Made by a program: the position numbers and the translations under genes
The notes under the pieces: generated by a model
Database searches by the model: none
Told to the model about the DNA's origin: nothing
What the model saw: only the letters and a program-made list of their open reading frames with translations
In this document: positions 1-32,917 of the stretch, piece after piece
Position numbering within the stretch: position 1 is the first letter of the stretch
How the letters are laid out: each line of letters opens with the position of its first letter
IMG/VR virus record: IMGVR_UViG_3300026549_000035
Span: 1-32,917 of that record
Reading direction: 5' to 3' (one strand)
Origin: a virus
DNA: 32,917 nucleotides

Positions 1-87
1 TTTTTTTTTTTTTTTTTTTTTTTTTTTTTTTTATTTTTTTTTTTTTTATTTTTTTTTTTTTTTTTTTTTTTTTTTTTTTTTTTTTTT
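1..87. repeat. Homopolymeric poly(T) tract, 87 nt, with two A interruptions at positions 33 and 48
   Basis: Read directly from the sequence. Lies immediately downstream (minus-strand sense) of a consensus promoter at 97-125. Confidence 0.9.
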
Positions 88-96
88 GATGTATTT

Positions 97-125
97 ATTA
101 TAACACACTTTATTAGAAATGTCAA
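97..125 (-). promoter_or_regulatory. Sigma-A type promoter (TTGACA, 17 bp spacer, TATAAT) firing toward the poly(T) tract
   Basis: Minus strand reads TTGACAtttctaataaagtgtgtTATAAT. Positions 97-140 nearly duplicate the promoter block at 1113-1160. Confidence 0.6.
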
Positions 126-276
126 TAGTTTTCGGGAAAATTTTTTCTCGATTGCGCCCGGGCCAAATCAAAACAAAAAGAGCTAAATGGCTAGCCTCGT
201 GAAAATTCGACCGCATCGCGGTCTGTGTCGGTCACCATTCAGCAGGTGACTTTTCACAAAAGTCTTTTAATGGACA

Positions 277-348
277 CTAATCGCAACCAGTGGCACTGGC
301 GCAAACTTTAGCAATCAATAAAAGGGCTTTTACTAATTCAAGAGTCAT
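277..348 (-). CDS. Possible 23-aa hydrophobic peptide (MTLELVKALLLIAKVCASATGCD), apparently translationally coupled downstream of the AbrB-like gene
   Basis: AGGAG 9 nt upstream of the ATG. TAG stop. Followed by a structured ~150 nt 3' region with hairpins GTCACC..GGTGAC and GACCGC..GCGGTC. Confidence 0.3.
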   Translation of the reverse strand: MTLELVKALLLIAKVCASATGCD

Positions 349-367
349 AACATTTAGCTCCTTTCAA

Positions 368-619
368 TTATTTAGTTTTACTTTCAATAAGTTGTATTAA
401 TTTTTCGAATCGCTCATCAACTTCAAGGTCATCTTGCCAGTCTTGCCGCAATTCGTTTAAAACAGGAATAGTATCATTTTGACGTTTGCGTAAAATCAAT
501 TCACCATTGTCTTTTGGAATGATTTCAATTTCATCGCCACCCATCCAACGCAAAGCGCGTCTTACATCTCTTGGAATAGCGATACGTCCAATATCATCAA
601 TCTTTTTAATTATTACCAT
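368..619 (-). CDS. AbrB/MazE/SpoVT-family swapped-hairpin DNA-binding protein (83 aa)
   Basis: N-terminus MVIIKKIDDIGRIAIPRDVRRAL matches the IDxLGRIVIPxxxR AbrB-N motif. RBS GGATGTG. TAA stop. Own promoter at 646-674. Confidence 0.8.
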   Translation of the reverse strand: MVIIKKIDDIGRIAIPRDVRRALRWMGGDEIEIIPKDNGELILRKRQNDTIPVLNELRQDWQDDLEVDERFEKLIQLIESKTK

Positions 620-645
620 TTTATCACATCCTTTATTATAATAAA

Positions 646-674
646 ATTATAACAAATTTTTTCAAAAAAGTCAA
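646..674 (-). promoter_or_regulatory. Sigma-A type promoter TTGACT-17-TATAAT for the AbrB-like gene
   Basis: Minus strand reads TTGACTtttttgaaaaaatttgtTATAAT, followed by the RBS and the ATG. Confidence 0.7.
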
Positions 675-684
675 AAAAATCGGT

Positions 685-29406: not shown

Positions 29407-29423
29407 TTAAGGAGGCGTAAATA

Positions 29424-30032
29424 GTGAATACACAATTTAAGACTATTTACGACCGCTTTCTCGGAAAAATAACTGATGATATGTATGTAGAATTAACTCC
29501 AGAAGACACTTTAAGAGATTTGCAAACTTTATTAATAGATTCTTTACCTGGTTTTGAATTCCCTCGAATTCCTCTAGATGATTATACTCTTTAGACGATT
29601 GTTAAACCTTCAAATGAAGTAACTGATGAAGATTTTGTTCGTGGTCCAGTATGGCATGAGTTAGCTTCAGAGGAAGAAGAGAGTGAAGAAGTATATGTAG
29701 ATCAATCTACTTTTAACTTTGAATTAACTTCAGAAGAAATTAATATTATTGCTATCTTAATGATGTGCGGCTGGGTCCAACGATAGGTTACTTCAATCGA
29801 GAACACTCGCATGAAATATTCTGGCAGTGATTTTAAAATGACCTCTTAGGCAAATCATTTATAGAAATTAATGAGTTTACTCTCAGAGTGTCAAAAACAA
29901 TCTCTCCATATGCAAAGACTTTATAAGCGTAGACGTTTAATTTAGAATGAGAATAGTCCATACAATGGTTTTTATCGTTCTAATTGGGATACGCTGGGAA
30001 GGGGAGTATATTATGATCGATATGACAACTAA
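29424..30032 (+). CDS. Hypothetical protein (~202 aa, GTG start) with five in-frame TAG codons
   Basis: AAGGAGG 8 nt upstream of the GTG. The frame stays open only if TAG is sense. Overlaps the next gene by 20 nt. Confidence 0.4.
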
Positions 30033-30321
30033 TTATGGATTTGATATTACAACCGAAGAAGCCTTTGATAAAAATATTTCTAGATTAACAAATCAAATGT
30101 GGAAATTAATTCCCATGAGAGAAAATGAGGAAGATTGGAAAAAACAACTTAATACAGTTATTTTAGAAATTGCGGGTCTTAATGAAATTTTTATTGAGAA
30201 TCCGCAATTTTTATAGTTACTTTCTAAACTTGAAGGAATAAAAACTAAAGAACCTGATTTTAGTATTTATAGAAAGACTGTATTTGAATCAATTGGACTC
30301 TTACGGGGGTTATGTAAATGA
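30013..30321 (+). CDS. Hypothetical protein (~102 aa) with one in-frame TAG
   Basis: RBS GGGAAGGGGAG. ATG at 30013. TGA stop overlapping the next start (ATGA). Confidence 0.5.
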
Positions 30322-31391
30322 AACGAAAAGAAAAGTTTTTTACTGACGGATTAAGAAATCTCGGAGGAAGATTAGGTTATTTATCTTCTCCCGAATACTC
30401 TGGAAGTTCAGTCCAAGGAGTTTCTTAGATGGCTAATCGTCTTTAGTAGATGGGTGGTCGCACATAGCAAGAACGTATGATTCGAGATAAGCGTCGAAGT
30501 TTAGATAAAGCTTTGCTTTATTCTTATTAGGGTGCTTTTGTTAAAAAAGTGCAAAAATTAGTTAATGAGTCTTCTCCAGAAGACAATTAGCCTCCAGTTC
30601 GTGCTTTAATCAATCCTGATAAAGTAAAATAGGATTATGATGATAAAATTATTTCAATTGGATTTGAGCATGATTATAAAGCAGGAGACGTTTTTGAATG
30701 GGTAAATACTAATTCTTATTGGTTAATTTATTTATAGGATAAAACTGAACTAGCTTATTTCCGAGGGGAAATCCGCAGATGCAGACATACTATTAAGTTT
30801 AAAGATGAAAATGGTAATGAATGTATTACATATGCGGCCGTGCGCGGACCAGTTGAAACAAAAATAGACTATATTCAAAAAAATGGAATATCTGTTGATA
30901 GACCTAATTATTCTTTGCATATACTATTACCTGCAAATGAAGATAATTTAAATTATTTTAATAGATATTCTAAATTTTATCTATTGGAAGATAATAAGAA
31001 AATTTGTTGGCGAGTAGAAGCTACTGATTGGATTTCAACTCCTGGTATATTAGAAATTAGTGCTGTTGAGTATTATGTTAATGAATTTGAAGACGACGTT
31101 GAAAATGGCGTAGTCGGTGGCTTAATAGTAAAAGAAGAAAATCCTAACAATACAGAAGTTGAAAATCTTATTTAGGGAGAATCTTTCATTAAACCTAAGG
31201 GAGCTTATGAATATACTTTTACAGGAGAAGAGCCTGCGGTTTGGTCAATAGATAAAAATAAATACCCAATAGAATATAAAGAGATTAATGATAAAACGAT
31301 TCGATTACGATGGAATTCTAGTTATAGTGGACAATTTGATATCATTTGTAATAATATAACTAAAACTGTTGTTGTTGAGTCTTTATTTTGA
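30318..31391 (+). CDS. Hypothetical structural protein (~357 aa) with ~12 in-frame TAG codons
   Basis: Long open frame under TAG=sense, incorporating ORF 30840..31175. TGA stop. Confidence 0.5.
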
Positions 31392-31405
31392 GATAAAGGA
31401 GTTTA

Positions 31406-32014
31406 ATGCTTATGAAAGTTGTAAATTATTCTTTTCCAAAGTCAAGCTTTTTGGCAGTTGAAAAAGATATGAATCTTTTAATTAATCTATTCTTAAAAAA
31501 TGATAGATTAAAGAAGTTGCTTTATTATGATATTCCAAGCGCATTAGATTAGCCTAATGTGCCACAAGATAAAGCTCTTGAAATGTTTGGAAAACAAATT
31601 AAAATTGTTCCAAAACTAAAAGTTGATTAGCCAGATTTTTGTTATATTATTATCAGTTTTGATAATTTTACTGAAAATATGACTAATCCTGAATTTAGAG
31701 ATAATATAATTTCTTTTGATATTATATGTCATTTTGATCAATGGCAATTAAAAGATACTTAGCTTAGACCTTATAAGATTGCGGCTGAGATTGACAGTAT
31801 GTTAAATGACAAAAGACTTACTGGAATTGGCACAGTGCAATTTTTAGGTGCTAATTAGATTGTATTATCTGATGAATTTGCGGGATTAACTTTAATGTAT
31901 CAAACAATTCATGGATATGATGGAGAGGATTCAAAATATGCATAGAAACCAGGAGAGCAAGAAAGTATAAATGCTAATTGGAATAGGATTTATAATTAGC
32001 CTGATGAATTATGA
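31406..32014 (+). CDS. Hypothetical structural protein (~202 aa) with in-frame TAG codons
   Basis: RBS AAAGGAG. TGA stop overlapping the next ATG. Confidence 0.45.
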
Positions 32015-32732
32015 TATTCGTTTAGCATTAATGTGTGGCTCAGATATTCCAATTCCAGAATGTGGAGTCATATTTCATTAGCCTAGTATAAAAGAAATTG
32101 CTCTTATTGGCGAAAATGATTTTTTTATAGGTGTATAGACTCTATGTATTAATAAAAATATGATTATGTAGGGCGAAACTCTTTTATCAAATACAAGTAA
32201 TTTTTAGATATTTATGACAATAATGCAAGAAAAAGAAACTGCTGATAAAAAAGATGCTATTAAATCACTATTTTCTTTAATTTTTCCTAATCAGAAATTA
32301 ATAATAACTCCAAGAGGTATGGTTCTTAGCGAAGGAGAAAATAGTGCTACTATTGATGAAACAAATTTTGATTTTTTATAGCAAGTTTCTTTTTAGGCGT
32401 TTTGTATTAATACAGGTCCTATGGATGCTCAAACATTTAACCCTGCTAATGAAAAAGCTAAAGAAATAGCAGATAAATTAATGCGCGCTCGACAAAGAGT
32501 AGCCGAGCAAAAGGGTGGAAATGGAAGTATTTTTTCTTAGTATATTTCTACTTTAACGGTTGGATTAAATTCAATGAGTATAGAAAACTGTTGTAATTTA
32601 ACTATGTATTAGCTTTTTGATTTAGTAGAAAGATATATGCTTTGGGTTAATTGGGATCTTGATGTAAAATCACGCTTAGCAGGTGGAAAACCTGATAAGC
32701 AACCAGACAATTGGATGAAAAATATCCATTAA
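32004..32732 (+). CDS. Hypothetical structural protein (~242 aa) with ~12 in-frame TAG codons
   Basis: Frame open from ATG 32004 to TAA 32730-32732 under TAG=sense. Confidence 0.45.
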
Positions 32733-32754
32733 TAAAAAAAGGAGGAAAATACCC

Positions 32755-32917
32755 ATGAAATTTGGTGTTCGTGAAATTTGCGATGTTGTTCTTAGAGCAA
32801 AAGCTGCCCAAAAAGTCGGTAATAAAGTTTTTTATAAGAATGAACCAGTTATTTATTTTGATAGTTTAAAAACTTCTACTTTAGAAGGCGCAGCTACTAC
32901 TGTATATGCTCAAGGTG
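32755..32917 (+). CDS. Putative tail or structural protein, 5' fragment (runs off the window). No TAG in the first 54 codons
   Basis: Strong RBS AAAGGAGGAAAAT. Sequence MKFGVREICDVVLRAKAAQKVGNKVFYKNEPVIYFDSLKTSTLEGAATTVYAQG. Confidence 0.5.
   Translation, partial: MKFGVREICDVVLRAKAAQKVGNKVFYKNEPVIYFDSLKTSTLEGAATTVYAQG

Follow-up and report, generated by a model that had tools for sequence, protein, structure and literature searches.

The window, by which we mean the whole stretch of 32,917 nucleotides analysed here, raises a simple question: why do composition, coding strand and genetic code all change abruptly at one point near its middle? The preliminary description had seen in this either a modular mosaic with an early module adapted to the host or a chimeric assembly. 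We find that the two-part structure at ~15.5 kb is real, follows a layout already known from phages and stems from a large gut or rumen phage. This phage is tailed, and the window corresponds to one end of its genome contig of ~177 kb. Feature coordinates are collected in Table 1.

GC content is 0.387 for positions 1-15400 and 0.307 for positions 15401-32917. The right-hand value (30.7%) agrees with the ~30% reported before, whereas the ~43% given for the left half was too high (38.7% measured). Nearly all of the difference resides at third codon positions (GC1, GC2 and GC3 of.47,.34 and.37 on the left,.43,.32 and.18 on the right). The described richness of the right half in AAA and AAT is seen as well: AAA/(AAA+AAG) is 0.84 against 0.64 on the left, AAT occurs 63 against 25 times per 1000 codons, and AAA is the commonest codon of late genes. 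Left genes lie on the minus strand and right genes on the plus strand, as had been noted. The proposed break at ~15.4 kb stands for the composition, which shifts at ~15.4-15.6 kb, but not for the strand, which switches only at 15.91-16.03 kb. In what follows the left arm is called early and the right arm late, a timing that promoter type suggests.

Table 1. Features of the window (strand as annotated; a point marks features without an assigned strand).
Feature	Position	Strand	Details
T homopolymer	1-96	.	contig end; read directly from sequence
Early module, hyperplastic in appearance	97-14770	-	~30 small ORFs (41-190 aa); from promoters, repeat families, TAG count, GC3
CCCGGG, 14 copies	157-12955	.	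usually as CGCCCGGGCG or AGCCCGGGCT
tRNA-Lys(UUU)	4001-4075	-	ARAGORN; Rfam tRNA 58.6 bits
Early gene ending at TAG	7849-8250	-	homology in L001, L002, L011
Non-coding structured region	14800-15400	.	GC 0.47; adjoins GC-skew minimum; at composition break
Last leftward gene, DUF7352, 95 aa	15626-15913	-	kept in relatives; no TAG
Divergent promoters, back to back	15942-16001	.	sequence; promoter scoring
Junction gene, 349 aa	16031-17080	+	PHROGs family label 'sigma factor' (putative)
YonG_N-like gene, split	17147-19510	+	pieces 17147-17899 and 19052-19510; phrog_3314 matches both halves
Intron-like insertion in YonG_N-like gene	17900-19051	+	1,152 bp; carries HNH homing endonuclease
HNH homing endonuclease in this insertion	18068-18901	+	5 in-frame TAGs
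Large terminase, three pieces	19513-22889	+	19513-19806, 20246-~21539, 22713-22889; phrog_2 and phrog_15503
HNH endonuclease in ~1.17 kb terminase insertion	21754-22590	+	9 TAGs
Free-standing homing-endonuclease-like gene, 118 aa	22908-23264	+	2 TAGs; phrog_559 and phrog_9084
Portal protein	23296-24984	+	11 TAGs; phrog_2739, E 1.8e-72
YonD_N-like protein	24996-26570	+	4 TAGs; phrog_3313
Abundant head gene	26591-27616	+	0 TAG
Major-capsid-like gene, abundant head protein	27635-28741	+	0 TAG; phrog_4088 cited for the 26591-28741 pair
Further structural genes, tightly packed	28825-32917	+	1-9 in-frame TAGs each; last ORF runs off the window

So sharp a change might mean that the assembler joined two unrelated sequences near 15.4-16 kb, and the assembly is indeed imperfect: the homopolymer at its end is an artefact outside the phage biology. 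Two close strains (L097 and L098) align from position 97 onwards, where they show the same promoter, followed by a normal 5'UTR and an HD-domain gene. Against a false join, however, independent assemblies of near-identical strains cross the junction. One from another sample (L085, 92% identical) aligns unbroken to positions 14087-17899, another (L082) joins 13980-14766 and 15490-27473, the latter at 96-97%, and L097 and L098 cover positions 97-8368. Positions 603-20911, including the join, are 100% identical to one end of a 177,555-bp ENA contig (L099). The co-occurrence of the two modules in related phages, suggested earlier as a check, is found in more than 35 contigs of 100-240 kb, dozens of which have the same early and late sides around the junction gene. 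In each of the 35 related phage loci whose codon composition was compared, GC3 is higher on the early than on the late side, and in 39 of 39 relatives profiled for promoters the minus-strand consensus promoters are confined to the early side. The two arms are co-inherited; a chimeric contig is hardly credible and, for practical purposes, refuted.

Almost every ORF of the left arm is served by a separate TTGACA-17-TATAAT promoter, in most cases one that has a TGn extended -10 element, and the cassettes run in the order promoter, conserved 5'UTR with RBS, small ORF, hairpin. The packing with sigma-A promoters that had been noticed before is borne out by 86 sites against 38.0 +/- 6.5 in shuffles. 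Among them are 19 perfect 12/12 matches; 32 minus-strand promoters carry a common leader, and the density amounts to one consensus promoter per ~500 bp. Such sites are not enriched in the right arm (86 against 87.8 expected), where the scan gave no score above 10/12; this stands beside the 12/12 plus-strand promoter at 15973-16001. Repeat families D1-D7 are present in 6-18 copies per family, and 38 terminator-like sites are found against 13.5 +/- 4 expected. Stop codons are TAA (25), TGA (4) and TAG (1). The encoded proteins are mostly ORFans, with NT5C-like, MazE-like and winged-HTH-like matches among the rest.

The restriction of CCCGGG to the left half, also described earlier, is complete: 14 copies on the left (0.77 expected; starts at 157, 1162, 1842, 2852, 3932, 4812, 5804, 6638, 8299, 8998, 9412, 10575, 11387 and 12950) and none on the right. 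Four of the 14 lie in the promoter spacer directly after the -35 element; the majority of the remainder sit between a terminator hairpin and the A/T-rich upstream element that comes next. Both contexts recur in four relatives (L002, L011, L019 and L055). CCCGGG thus occupies fixed places of the early promoter and terminator cassettes.

A similar organization is known from the hyperplastic regions of T4-like phages with their PeSL (promoter-early stem-loop) cassettes (PMC2839356, PMC4122927), where composite promoter/terminator units mediate cassette shuffling (Comeau et al., PMC4122927). As there, small and mostly unknown ORFs are flanked by a repeated hairpin and a strong early promoter, the region is highly variable between close relatives, and the composite unit of terminator hairpin and early promoter that marks the PeSL type is repeated between the ORFs. 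Differences are that the lineage is unrelated to T4-like phages and its host is probably Gram-positive, that the early promoters reproduce the complete sigma-A consensus together with an extended -10 element, and that the extra CCCGGG element is absent from the PeSL description. The early region works like a PeSL region outside that phage group. We rejected membership of the T4-like myoviruses, as in its structural genes the phage is similar to Phass-1, Enterococcus siphophages and SPbeta. The host-takeover cluster of SPO1 and the pre-early cluster of T5 likewise gather many short genes with very strong host-polymerase promoters at one genome end; the likeness to the window lies in the short genes and strong promoters, with no sequence similarity.

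Early genes also differ among themselves. GC3 ranges from 0.19 to 0.66 per gene and is over-dispersed (dispersion 5.8; chi2 170 on 29 df), and genes of very different GC3 adjoin on the same arm. For 13 of the 30 early proteins, the early sides of the related loci searched contain no homologue. Between strains with a 97% identical late arm the early arm is only 78% identical, and whole cassettes differ (L097 lacks one copy of a 122-aa paralogue). The modular mosaic proposed earlier thus holds for the early arm only, in which genes turn over quickly and which looks cassette-shuffled and hyperplastic.

These data also bear on the suggestion that the early module is ameliorated to the host, i.e. 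that its codon usage was adjusted through dependence on host tRNAs and that selection alone explains the higher GC. On average, GC3 in the early arm is double that in the late arm, the direction is the same in all 35 relatives compared, and codon-usage differences between early and late phage genes are documented in general (PMC5683454). A common host optimum, however, does not predict the over-dispersion. Moreover, conserved resident early genes are late-like (0.19 for 15626-15913, 0.22-0.24 for the genes at 368-1091), and for the gene of highest GC3 (4127-4492) the best 120 of 414 homologues are all in metagenomic contigs, without any NCBI genome among them. We therefore regard amelioration as unlikely. 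The tRNA-Lys(UUU) gene sits downstream of 4127-4492 as part of an early cassette, and strains L097 and L098 have it too. The predominance of AAA among late codons would fit this tRNA, as the preliminary description had proposed.

That tRNA gene might instead point to a prophage boundary, with a standard-code bacterial chromosome on the left and an integrated recoded prophage on the right; recoded prophages with a rise in GC at the boundary are described by Borges et al. (10.1101/2021.08.26.457843). Yet the genes on the left are short ORFans of phage type whose only matches are to PHROGs, their homologues (the best 120 of 414 in the case of 4127-4492) sit on metagenomic phage contigs and not in NCBI genomes, and a chromosome does not have a consensus promoter every ~500 bp. 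Since the left arm is also found inside viral contigs of 100-240 kb and the window contains no integrase, the probability of such a junction is close to negligible.

At the composition break lies a structured non-coding region in which a sequence of 42 nt is directly repeated (14995-15036 and 15266-15307). The region is 94.5% conserved in L085, has fold z-scores of -5.2 (plus strand) and -3.1 (minus strand) and gives no Rfam match; it may serve as an origin or packaging signal or encode an ncRNA. The last leftward gene has a GC3 of 0.19, which is already at the level of the right arm. Beyond it, a minus-strand promoter (TTGATT-17-TATAAT, 15970-15942) stands back to back with a plus-strand promoter (TTGACA-17-TATAAT with TG, 15973-16001, 12/12). 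The break at ~15.5-16 kb is the divergence point of two transcription arms. The product of the junction gene carries CxxC...CxxC at its C-terminus, and two of its codons are in-frame TAGs: codon 260 (16808-16810), where Gln is invariant, and codon 262 (16814-16816). Because this first rightward gene combines a perfect host-type promoter with in-frame TAG codons, host promoter and standard code cannot be strictly equated.

An origin near 15 kb could also impose different mutation regimes on two replication arms, independent of timing or turnover; the cumulative GC skew reaches its lowest point at ~15.5-16.5 kb, next to the structured, repeat-bearing region at 14.8-15.4 kb. Strand asymmetry, however, alters skew and not overall GC3 by a factor of two, and the skew in the window also tracks the coding strand. 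Neighbouring early genes of the same arm differ greatly in GC3, and in Phass-1 GC3 varies gene by gene and module by module. We consider this explanation very improbable.

The preliminary description was right on the genetic code of both halves. Coverage of the right arm by ORFs of at least 100 aa rises from 0.44 to 0.92 with TAG readthrough, against 0.47 only with TGA readthrough. Right-arm genes hold 85 in-frame TAGs in 4,950 codons, spread over 17 of the 18 called genes, while none is present in 2,859 codons on the left (P ~4e-22 at the late rate). The residues aligned to these TAGs in relatives (Q 944, '*' 296, E 268) indicate that TAG is read as Gln in the right arm. In the early gene at 7849-8250, by comparison, homology stops at residue ~128-131, just ahead of TAG codon 134, and the readthrough extension has no homologue; here TAG is a true stop. 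Recoding is not a by-product of low GC: TAG is absent even from the seven early genes whose GC3 is at most 0.27, which together comprise 733 codons, 24 of them for Gln (P ~3e-6 by codons, ~1e-5 by Gln codons). The window, beyond which another ~145 kb of the source genome lie, contains no suppressor tRNA(CUA). A scan of the 10 kb to either side of the junction in 30 relatives gave none, and neither did the contig of one relative when followed to ~26 kb on its early side.

Across relatives the GC3 gap between the arms is 0.07-0.12 in standard-code phages and 0.15-0.33 in most recoded ones. Spearman coefficients, uncorrected for shared ancestry, are 0.63 for GC3 gap against TAG frequency and -0.78 for CAG against TAG. 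The sum of TAG and CAG varies less (CV 0.19) than TAG (0.65) or CAG (0.53) alone. These values indicate that, clade-wide, TAG in late genes fills the share held by CAG in standard-code relatives. At the TAG positions of the window, standard-code relatives do not show CAG more commonly than CAA, so a direct conversion of CAG to TAG is not demonstrated at the present evolutionary distance.

The window thus belongs to a known class, phages with standard-code early and TAG-recoded late genes (code 15). Borges et al. present this early/late model, TAG to Gln is described for crAss-like phages with code 15 (PMC7886860), and TAG recoding in phages has experimental proof (PMC9523058). As in these phages, the in-frame TAGs cluster in genes for structure and packaging, TAG is never a sense codon in the opposite arm, genomic GC is low, most stop codons are TAA and close relatives use the standard code. 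Unlike them, the window has no suppressor tRNA, release factor or aminoacyl-tRNA synthetase, and its first recoded gene stands behind a consensus host-type promoter. As far as could be told from the accessible part of Borges et al., the lineage differs from their crAss, Lak and 'gemstone' clades, and that part holds no two-fold within-genome GC3 split or CAG/TAG trade-off.

The phage belongs to a broad lineage that takes in Phass-1, the ~140-kb Enterococcus siphophages and SPbeta-like structural genes. Phass-1 (OQ749652), the proposed Phassvirus, and divergent relatives were described by Babkin et al. (PMC10607447), whose paper makes no mention of promoters, early genes or codon usage. Both phages have large siphovirus-type genomes, major capsid proteins with 50% identity, TAG read as Gln in terminase, portal and tail genes, and two divergent arms with a gradient of GC3 and TAG along the genome. 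The early arm of the complete Phass-1 genome has promoters and a GC3 of ~0.55-0.6; its late genes are TAG-dense and depleted in CAG (GC3 ~0.2-0.26). The relation is distant, without similarity at the nucleotide level. Unlike the window, Phass-1 has a GC content of 44.5% and 36 tRNAs, including three tRNA-Sup(CUA) with the suppressors in the leftward arm, against tRNA-Lys(UUU) only in the window.

Most probably, then, a standard-code early arm of shuffled cassettes and a TAG-recoded late arm diverge at ~15.5-16 kb. Some 30 autonomous leftward cassettes, each of them a small ORF preceded by a strong host sigma-A-type promoter with a short conserved leader and closed by a hairpin, would be expressed by host RNA polymerase and ribosomes on arrival of the phage, and because of this they would have to be readable in the standard code. 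Cassettes come, go and are exchanged at a fast pace, probably through recombination between the repeated promoter/terminator units; this turnover would explain why the composition of early genes is heterogeneous and on average richer in GC. The right arm would sit at the phage's own AT-rich equilibrium (GC3 0.18). A suppressor tRNA supplied by the phage, from the genome beyond the window, may decode TAG, which could delay or gate the synthesis of late proteins.

The right arm itself forms a conserved module for packaging and the head, with genes for terminase, portal and capsid. Pfam labels on the portal and YonD_N-like counterparts in L082 agree with our assignments, and tblastn with the head gene finds Phass-1 (50%) and annotated major capsid proteins of Bacillus phages. 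The absence of TAG across both head genes (26591-28741) has a probability of ~7e-7, and a hairpin follows the major-capsid-like gene at ~28750-28800. The YonG_N-like gene is intact (403 aa) in L082-L087, where the insertion is absent. Similarly, the terminase is interrupted by insertions of ~440 nt and ~1.17 kb; of the 46 relatives listed, most have its pieces joined without a gap. A conserved gene interrupted by an insertion that close relatives lack is the pattern of group I introns with homing endonucleases, to which these elements would belong; no group I catalytic core was matched by Rfam in them at the gathering score or E <= 1. The three insertions have common motifs (CAACGACTATCC ... 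GATATAGTCTGA), and 50-nt matches to them occur at unannotated sites in phiKZ and Bacillus phages.

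The preliminary description had the contrast between the two arms of the window largely right: composition, strand, promoters, CCCGGG and TAG recoding all differ between them. Its suggestion of a chimeric assembly, in contrast, proves wrong, as both arms belong to one genome. More than 6,500 homologues of the junction protein were found; we fetched 80 IMG/VR loci around it, many on contigs of 100-240 kb. As to whether the two modules co-occur in related phages, a point raised in the same description, the arms are found together in all 39 loci profiled: minus-strand consensus promoters lie upstream of the junction in 39/39 and essentially none downstream. 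The upstream side is also the more GC-rich in all but two of the 39 loci, in which the sides are equal. Independent assemblies span the junction as well. The close strain L085 aligns unbroken to 14087-17899 at 92%, six independent ENA assemblies have the junction protein at 99% identity, and 603-20911 is 100% identical to one end of the ENA contig ERZ27252065 k141_7166 (177,555 bp). A second close strain (L082) aligns to 15490-27473 at 96-97% but to 13980-14766 at only 78%; two more (L097 and L098) cover 97-8368 at 90-97% with the tRNA-Lys kept, and a separate Logan assembly matches 6580-11582 exactly. A prophage boundary was also considered and set aside, since nothing in the left half looks like a bacterial chromosome. 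At positions 1-96 a T homopolymer of about 96 nt directly follows the -10 box of an early promoter. In the close strains the same promoter is followed by a normal leader and then an HD-domain gene, and the homopolymer is therefore a contig-end artefact.

Within this one genome TAG is used in two ways. With ORFs of at least 100 aa, coverage of the right half rises from 44% in the standard code to 92% when TAG is read through (47% with TGA read through). Relatives mostly carry Gln at the TAG positions of the window (Gln 944, TAG 296, Glu 268), so TAG is read as Gln, and the recoding described earlier for the right arm is confirmed. The standard code described for the left arm holds equally: in-frame TAG is found 0 times in 2,859 early codons against 85 times in 4,950 late codons. 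Seven early genes with GC3 (GC at third codon positions) as low as that of late genes also lack TAG (733 codons, 24 of them Gln; P about 3e-6 by codons, about 1e-5 by Gln codons), and the absence is therefore not just a side effect of base composition. Moreover, one early gene (7849-8250) ends at a TAG, which must be a true stop since the homologues from three relatives stop there too. A public code-15 call (7690-8250; 12662-13222 on L099, the 177.5-kb ENA contig named above) extends this gene by 53 residues to 186 aa. No homology was found for these 53 residues, and judged from the aligned homologues the call is an over-extension.

Codon usage shows how TAG is employed. Late genes contain 25.9 CAA, 17.2 TAG and 2.6 CAG per 1000 codons, against 12.9 CAA, 10.5 CAG and 0 TAG in early genes; TAG thus serves the late arm as its Gln codon ending in G. 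It is entirely absent from the two most abundant head genes (P about 7e-7), which fits with TAG being a slower or riskier codon. No suppressor tRNA was found in the window, within 10 kb of the junction in 30 relatives scanned, or along the early side of one relative's contig as far as about 26 kb; in these relatives only tRNA-Lys(CUU) and tRNA-Lys(UUU) were seen. In practice, standard gene callers shred the right arm while code-15 callers over-extend at least one early gene. Contigs of this type need two codes, as a single one mis-annotates one arm or the other.

Features of the window, with TAG translated as Gln in the right half
Feature	Position	Strand	Description
Early ORFs, about 30	left half	minus	41-190 aa
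Paralogous early genes	1197-1565; 4127-4492	minus	winged-helix-like; GC3 0.55 and 0.66, highest in window
Promoters without ORF (-35 position)	9891; 6595; 6199; 3889; 1916	minus	strong; followed by 170-360 nt without plausible ORF
tRNA-Lys(UUU)	4001-4075	minus	
Early gene ending at TAG	7849-8250	minus	
Inverted-repeat motif	12405-12489; 14770-14815		also at other promoter-proximal positions
Structured non-coding region	14800-15400		600 nt, GC-rich
Direct repeat, 42 nt	14995-15036; 15266-15307		
DUF7352 gene	15626-15913	minus	last leftward gene
Host-type promoter	15973-16001		perfect; junction gene
Junction gene	16031-17080	plus	349 aa; PHROG 'sigma factor' family
Further right-half products, in order	right half	plus	YonG_N-like; large terminase; portal; YonD_N-like; two head proteins incl. 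major-capsid-like; further virion proteins
Homing-endonuclease genes, three	right half		
Intron-like insertion	17900-19051		1,152 bp, in YonG_N-like gene
Intron-like insertions	~19807-20245; ~21540-22712		in large terminase

The left arm had been described as packed with sigma-A promoters, and an excess over shuffled sequence is indeed seen on this side only: 86 promoter-like sites against 38.0 +/- 6.5 in shuffles, compared with 86 against 87.8 expected in the right half, where none scores above 10/12. The left half holds 19 perfect TTGACA-17-TATAAT promoters, mostly bearing a TG extended -10 and almost all on the minus strand, and such a dense array may serve as a parts list. Nearly every early ORF lies 20-30 nt downstream of its own promoter, behind a stereotyped leader (TATAAT-AAAGACA...AAAGAGAGGAG-ATG). 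Most of these ORFs have no family match; a few match phage-only families, an NT5C-like nucleotidase, a MazE-like fold or winged-helix regulators. Gene content turns over fast: for 13 of 30 early proteins the early sides of the related loci compared hold no homologue, and the others are patchy. For the most GC-rich early gene the best 120 of 414 homologues are all in metagenomic contigs and none comes from an NCBI genome, which makes it a member of a phage family rather than an obvious import from a host; a bacterial donor was looked for among the same best 120 of 414 and none emerged.

The GC content is 0.387 over positions 1-15400 against 0.307 over the remainder. The right arm thus has the roughly 30% stated before, while the left is at about 39% rather than 43%. 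In a sliding-window plot the profile falls between 15.0 and 16.0 kb, and the cumulative GC skew turns in the same interval. The difference is mainly at synonymous sites (GC1/2/3 of 0.47/0.34/0.37 on the left and 0.43/0.32/0.18 on the right), and is present in non-coding sequence too (0.376 against 0.293). Per gene, GC3 is fairly homogeneous in the late arm (0.13-0.25) and ranges from 0.19 to 0.66 in the early arm, with a dispersion of 5.8 times binomial. Composition breaks at ~15.4-15.6 kb and the coding strand switches only at ~15.95 kb, because the DUF7352 gene, a conserved resident early gene beside the junction, has a GC3 of 0.19. An early module ameliorated to its host, as proposed earlier, is not supported, though it keeps some small probability: uniform amelioration does not predict such heterogeneity in GC3. 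The proposed modular mosaic applies to the early arm, given its GC3 dispersion and gene turnover, and not to the late arm. In our reading the early arm is a hyperplastic region shaped by cassette shuffling, with members of differing origin or age, and the late arm sits at the AT-rich equilibrium of the lineage. The early arm works like the promoter-early stem-loop (PeSL) hyperplastic regions of T4-like phages, and can also be likened to the early clusters of SPO1 and T5.

Similar tendencies are observed across the clade. Early GC3 exceeds late GC3 in 35/35 genomes, by 0.07-0.12 in the standard-code members (L008, L023, L032, L037, L042, L047 and L049) and by 0.15-0.33 in most recoded members, the window included. 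The size of this gap correlates with TAG frequency (Spearman 0.63), and late-gene CAG correlates inversely with TAG (Spearman -0.78), both values being uncorrected for shared ancestry. The sum of TAG and CAG is nearly constant (19.6 +/- 3.8 per 1000 codons, CV 0.19), each alone being three-fold more variable; TAG appears to take over the share of CAG in late genes. When codons were aligned with those of standard-code relatives, CAG was not enriched at TAG sites (0.385 against 0.577 at CAA sites); this test of descent from CAG has little power, as synonymous sites are probably saturated at 60-75% protein identity. Since standard-code and TAG-recoded members share the same gene order, the clade forms a natural series for a stop-to-sense change. 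The concrete, testable elements are TAG in place of CAG, a GC3 gap that widens with recoding and a host-type promoter on the first recoded gene. The window belongs to a kind of phage already known, with TAG recoded to Gln and an early arm in the standard code, and is a distant relative of the published Phass-1 (OQ749652). Phass-1, with a capsid 50% identical, shows the same early/late picture along its complete genome and carries tRNA-Sup(CUA) genes on its leftward arm; its paper (PMC10607447) does not discuss promoters, timing or codon usage.

CCCGGG palindromes are confined to the left arm, as had been remarked: 14 copies (0.77 expected, about 18-fold enriched) span 157-12955 and none occurs on the right. 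Within the left half, 14 of 16 CCGG sites are part of a CCCGGG. Each copy occupies one of two fixed positions: directly behind the -35 element, within the promoter spacer, or directly behind a terminator hairpin and ahead of the next upstream element. Both arrangements are seen again in L002, L011, L019 and L055, and in other relatives GCGCGC is enriched instead. This suggests a putative DNA-level protein-binding or modification site tied to early promoters and variable between lineages. The sequence CGCCCGGGCG belongs with this candidate site, and L022 is also listed among the relatives for the CCCGGG observation. No clean candidate was found among the relatives for an early protein co-occurring with CCCGGG enrichment.

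The results above show the layout, the two uses of TAG in one genome, its assignment to Gln and the joint inheritance of the arms; the timing of expression and the source of the suppressor we infer as follows. On entry, host RNA polymerase would fire the strong leftward promoters, and host ribosomes would translate the products in the standard code. These probably include tRNA-Lys(UUU), which sits inside an early cassette, and may include a TAG decoder encoded in the other roughly 145 kb of the genome. Full-length virion proteins of the rightward arm would need TAG read as Gln. The scheme matches the model of Borges et al. (10.1101/2021.08.26.457843), with standard-code early and recoded late genes. 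The junction gene has a perfect host-type promoter, yet carries TAG at codons 260 and 262, and Gln260 is invariant among 32 homologues. In 61 relatives the promoter scores at least 11/12 in 49, 1-7 in-frame TAGs occur in 46 and both in 43. As the rightward arm shows no other strong host-type promoter (and no terminator excess), translation of TAG, more than a switch to another promoter class, may gate late expression. The 'sigma factor' label of the junction protein comes from PHROGs only, all other tests being negative or weak. We give a small chance to a combined proposal: in this clade the early-to-late switch would be timed mainly by the decoding of TAG and not by the use of another class of promoter, and the CCCGGG spacer sites would act as the shut-off operator of the leftward arm. 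Host polymerase would then transcribe the rightward arm from the start, full-length products would await TAG being read as Gln, and the junction gene would be a conserved putative regulator with TAG at an invariant Gln (codon 260).

Between the arms, the structured non-coding region contains a direct repeat and adjoins the GC-skew minimum. Its predicted fold is unusually stable (z -5.2 on the plus strand), and a strain of a different sample shows 94.5% conservation of the region. From its sequence, it could be a candidate origin, packaging site or RNA. Beyond it, with TAG as sense, the genes of the right half form a compact plus-strand operon, with AGGAGG as ribosome-binding site and 0-11 in-frame TAGs per gene. 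The insertion in the YonG_N-like gene is absent from near-identical strains, and the terminase, in three pieces here, is contiguous in most of 46 relatives listed; the insertions are polymorphic among relatives. Two of the three carry HNH homing endonucleases (with 5 and 9 in-frame TAGs), and all three have core-like motifs CAACGACTATCC...GATATAGTCTGA in common. Rfam, run on the whole window and with relaxed thresholds, returned tRNA only, with no group I intron in the insertions and no known ncRNA. Each half was compared with phages, as proposed earlier: a nucleotide search of GenBank phages returned nothing for the left half and, for the right, only intron-like cores of ~50 nt. These 50-nt matches are to unannotated sites in phiKZ and Bacillus phages.

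Several minor observations concern the early arm. The winged-helix-like paralogues are 77% identical over 300 nt, each with a promoter; the tRNA-Lys follows only the copy at 4127-4492. In this stretch L097 has one gene of paralogue size fewer than L098, one copy apparently being absent. Relatives L090 (14083-14158) and L094 (7651-7725) have one tRNA-Lys each, roughly as far from the junction (~12 kb) as that of the window, and the one in one of these relatives has anticodon CUU and a sequence unrelated to the tRNA of the window. The slot seems, on these sequences, to have been filled independently. A link between anticodon and AAA/AAG usage was dropped, as the tRNA-Lys(CUU)/(UUU) of relatives are not orthologous to that of the window. 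Several -35 boxes are overlapped or directly preceded by an inverted-repeat motif, TTTGTGCA(N)TTTGCC / GGCAAA(N)TGCACAAA, which may be a putative second operator; between the divergent promoters at 12410-12484 the motif makes up a pair that is 92% complementary. For the promoters without ORF, the transcripts gave neither an Rfam match nor a homologue among the relatives fetched. Two of them, from 9891 (z -3.2) and from 6199 (z -2.4), have better folds than shuffled sequence, and the promoters at 3889 and 6595 form, with their surroundings, an 88%-identical duplicate.
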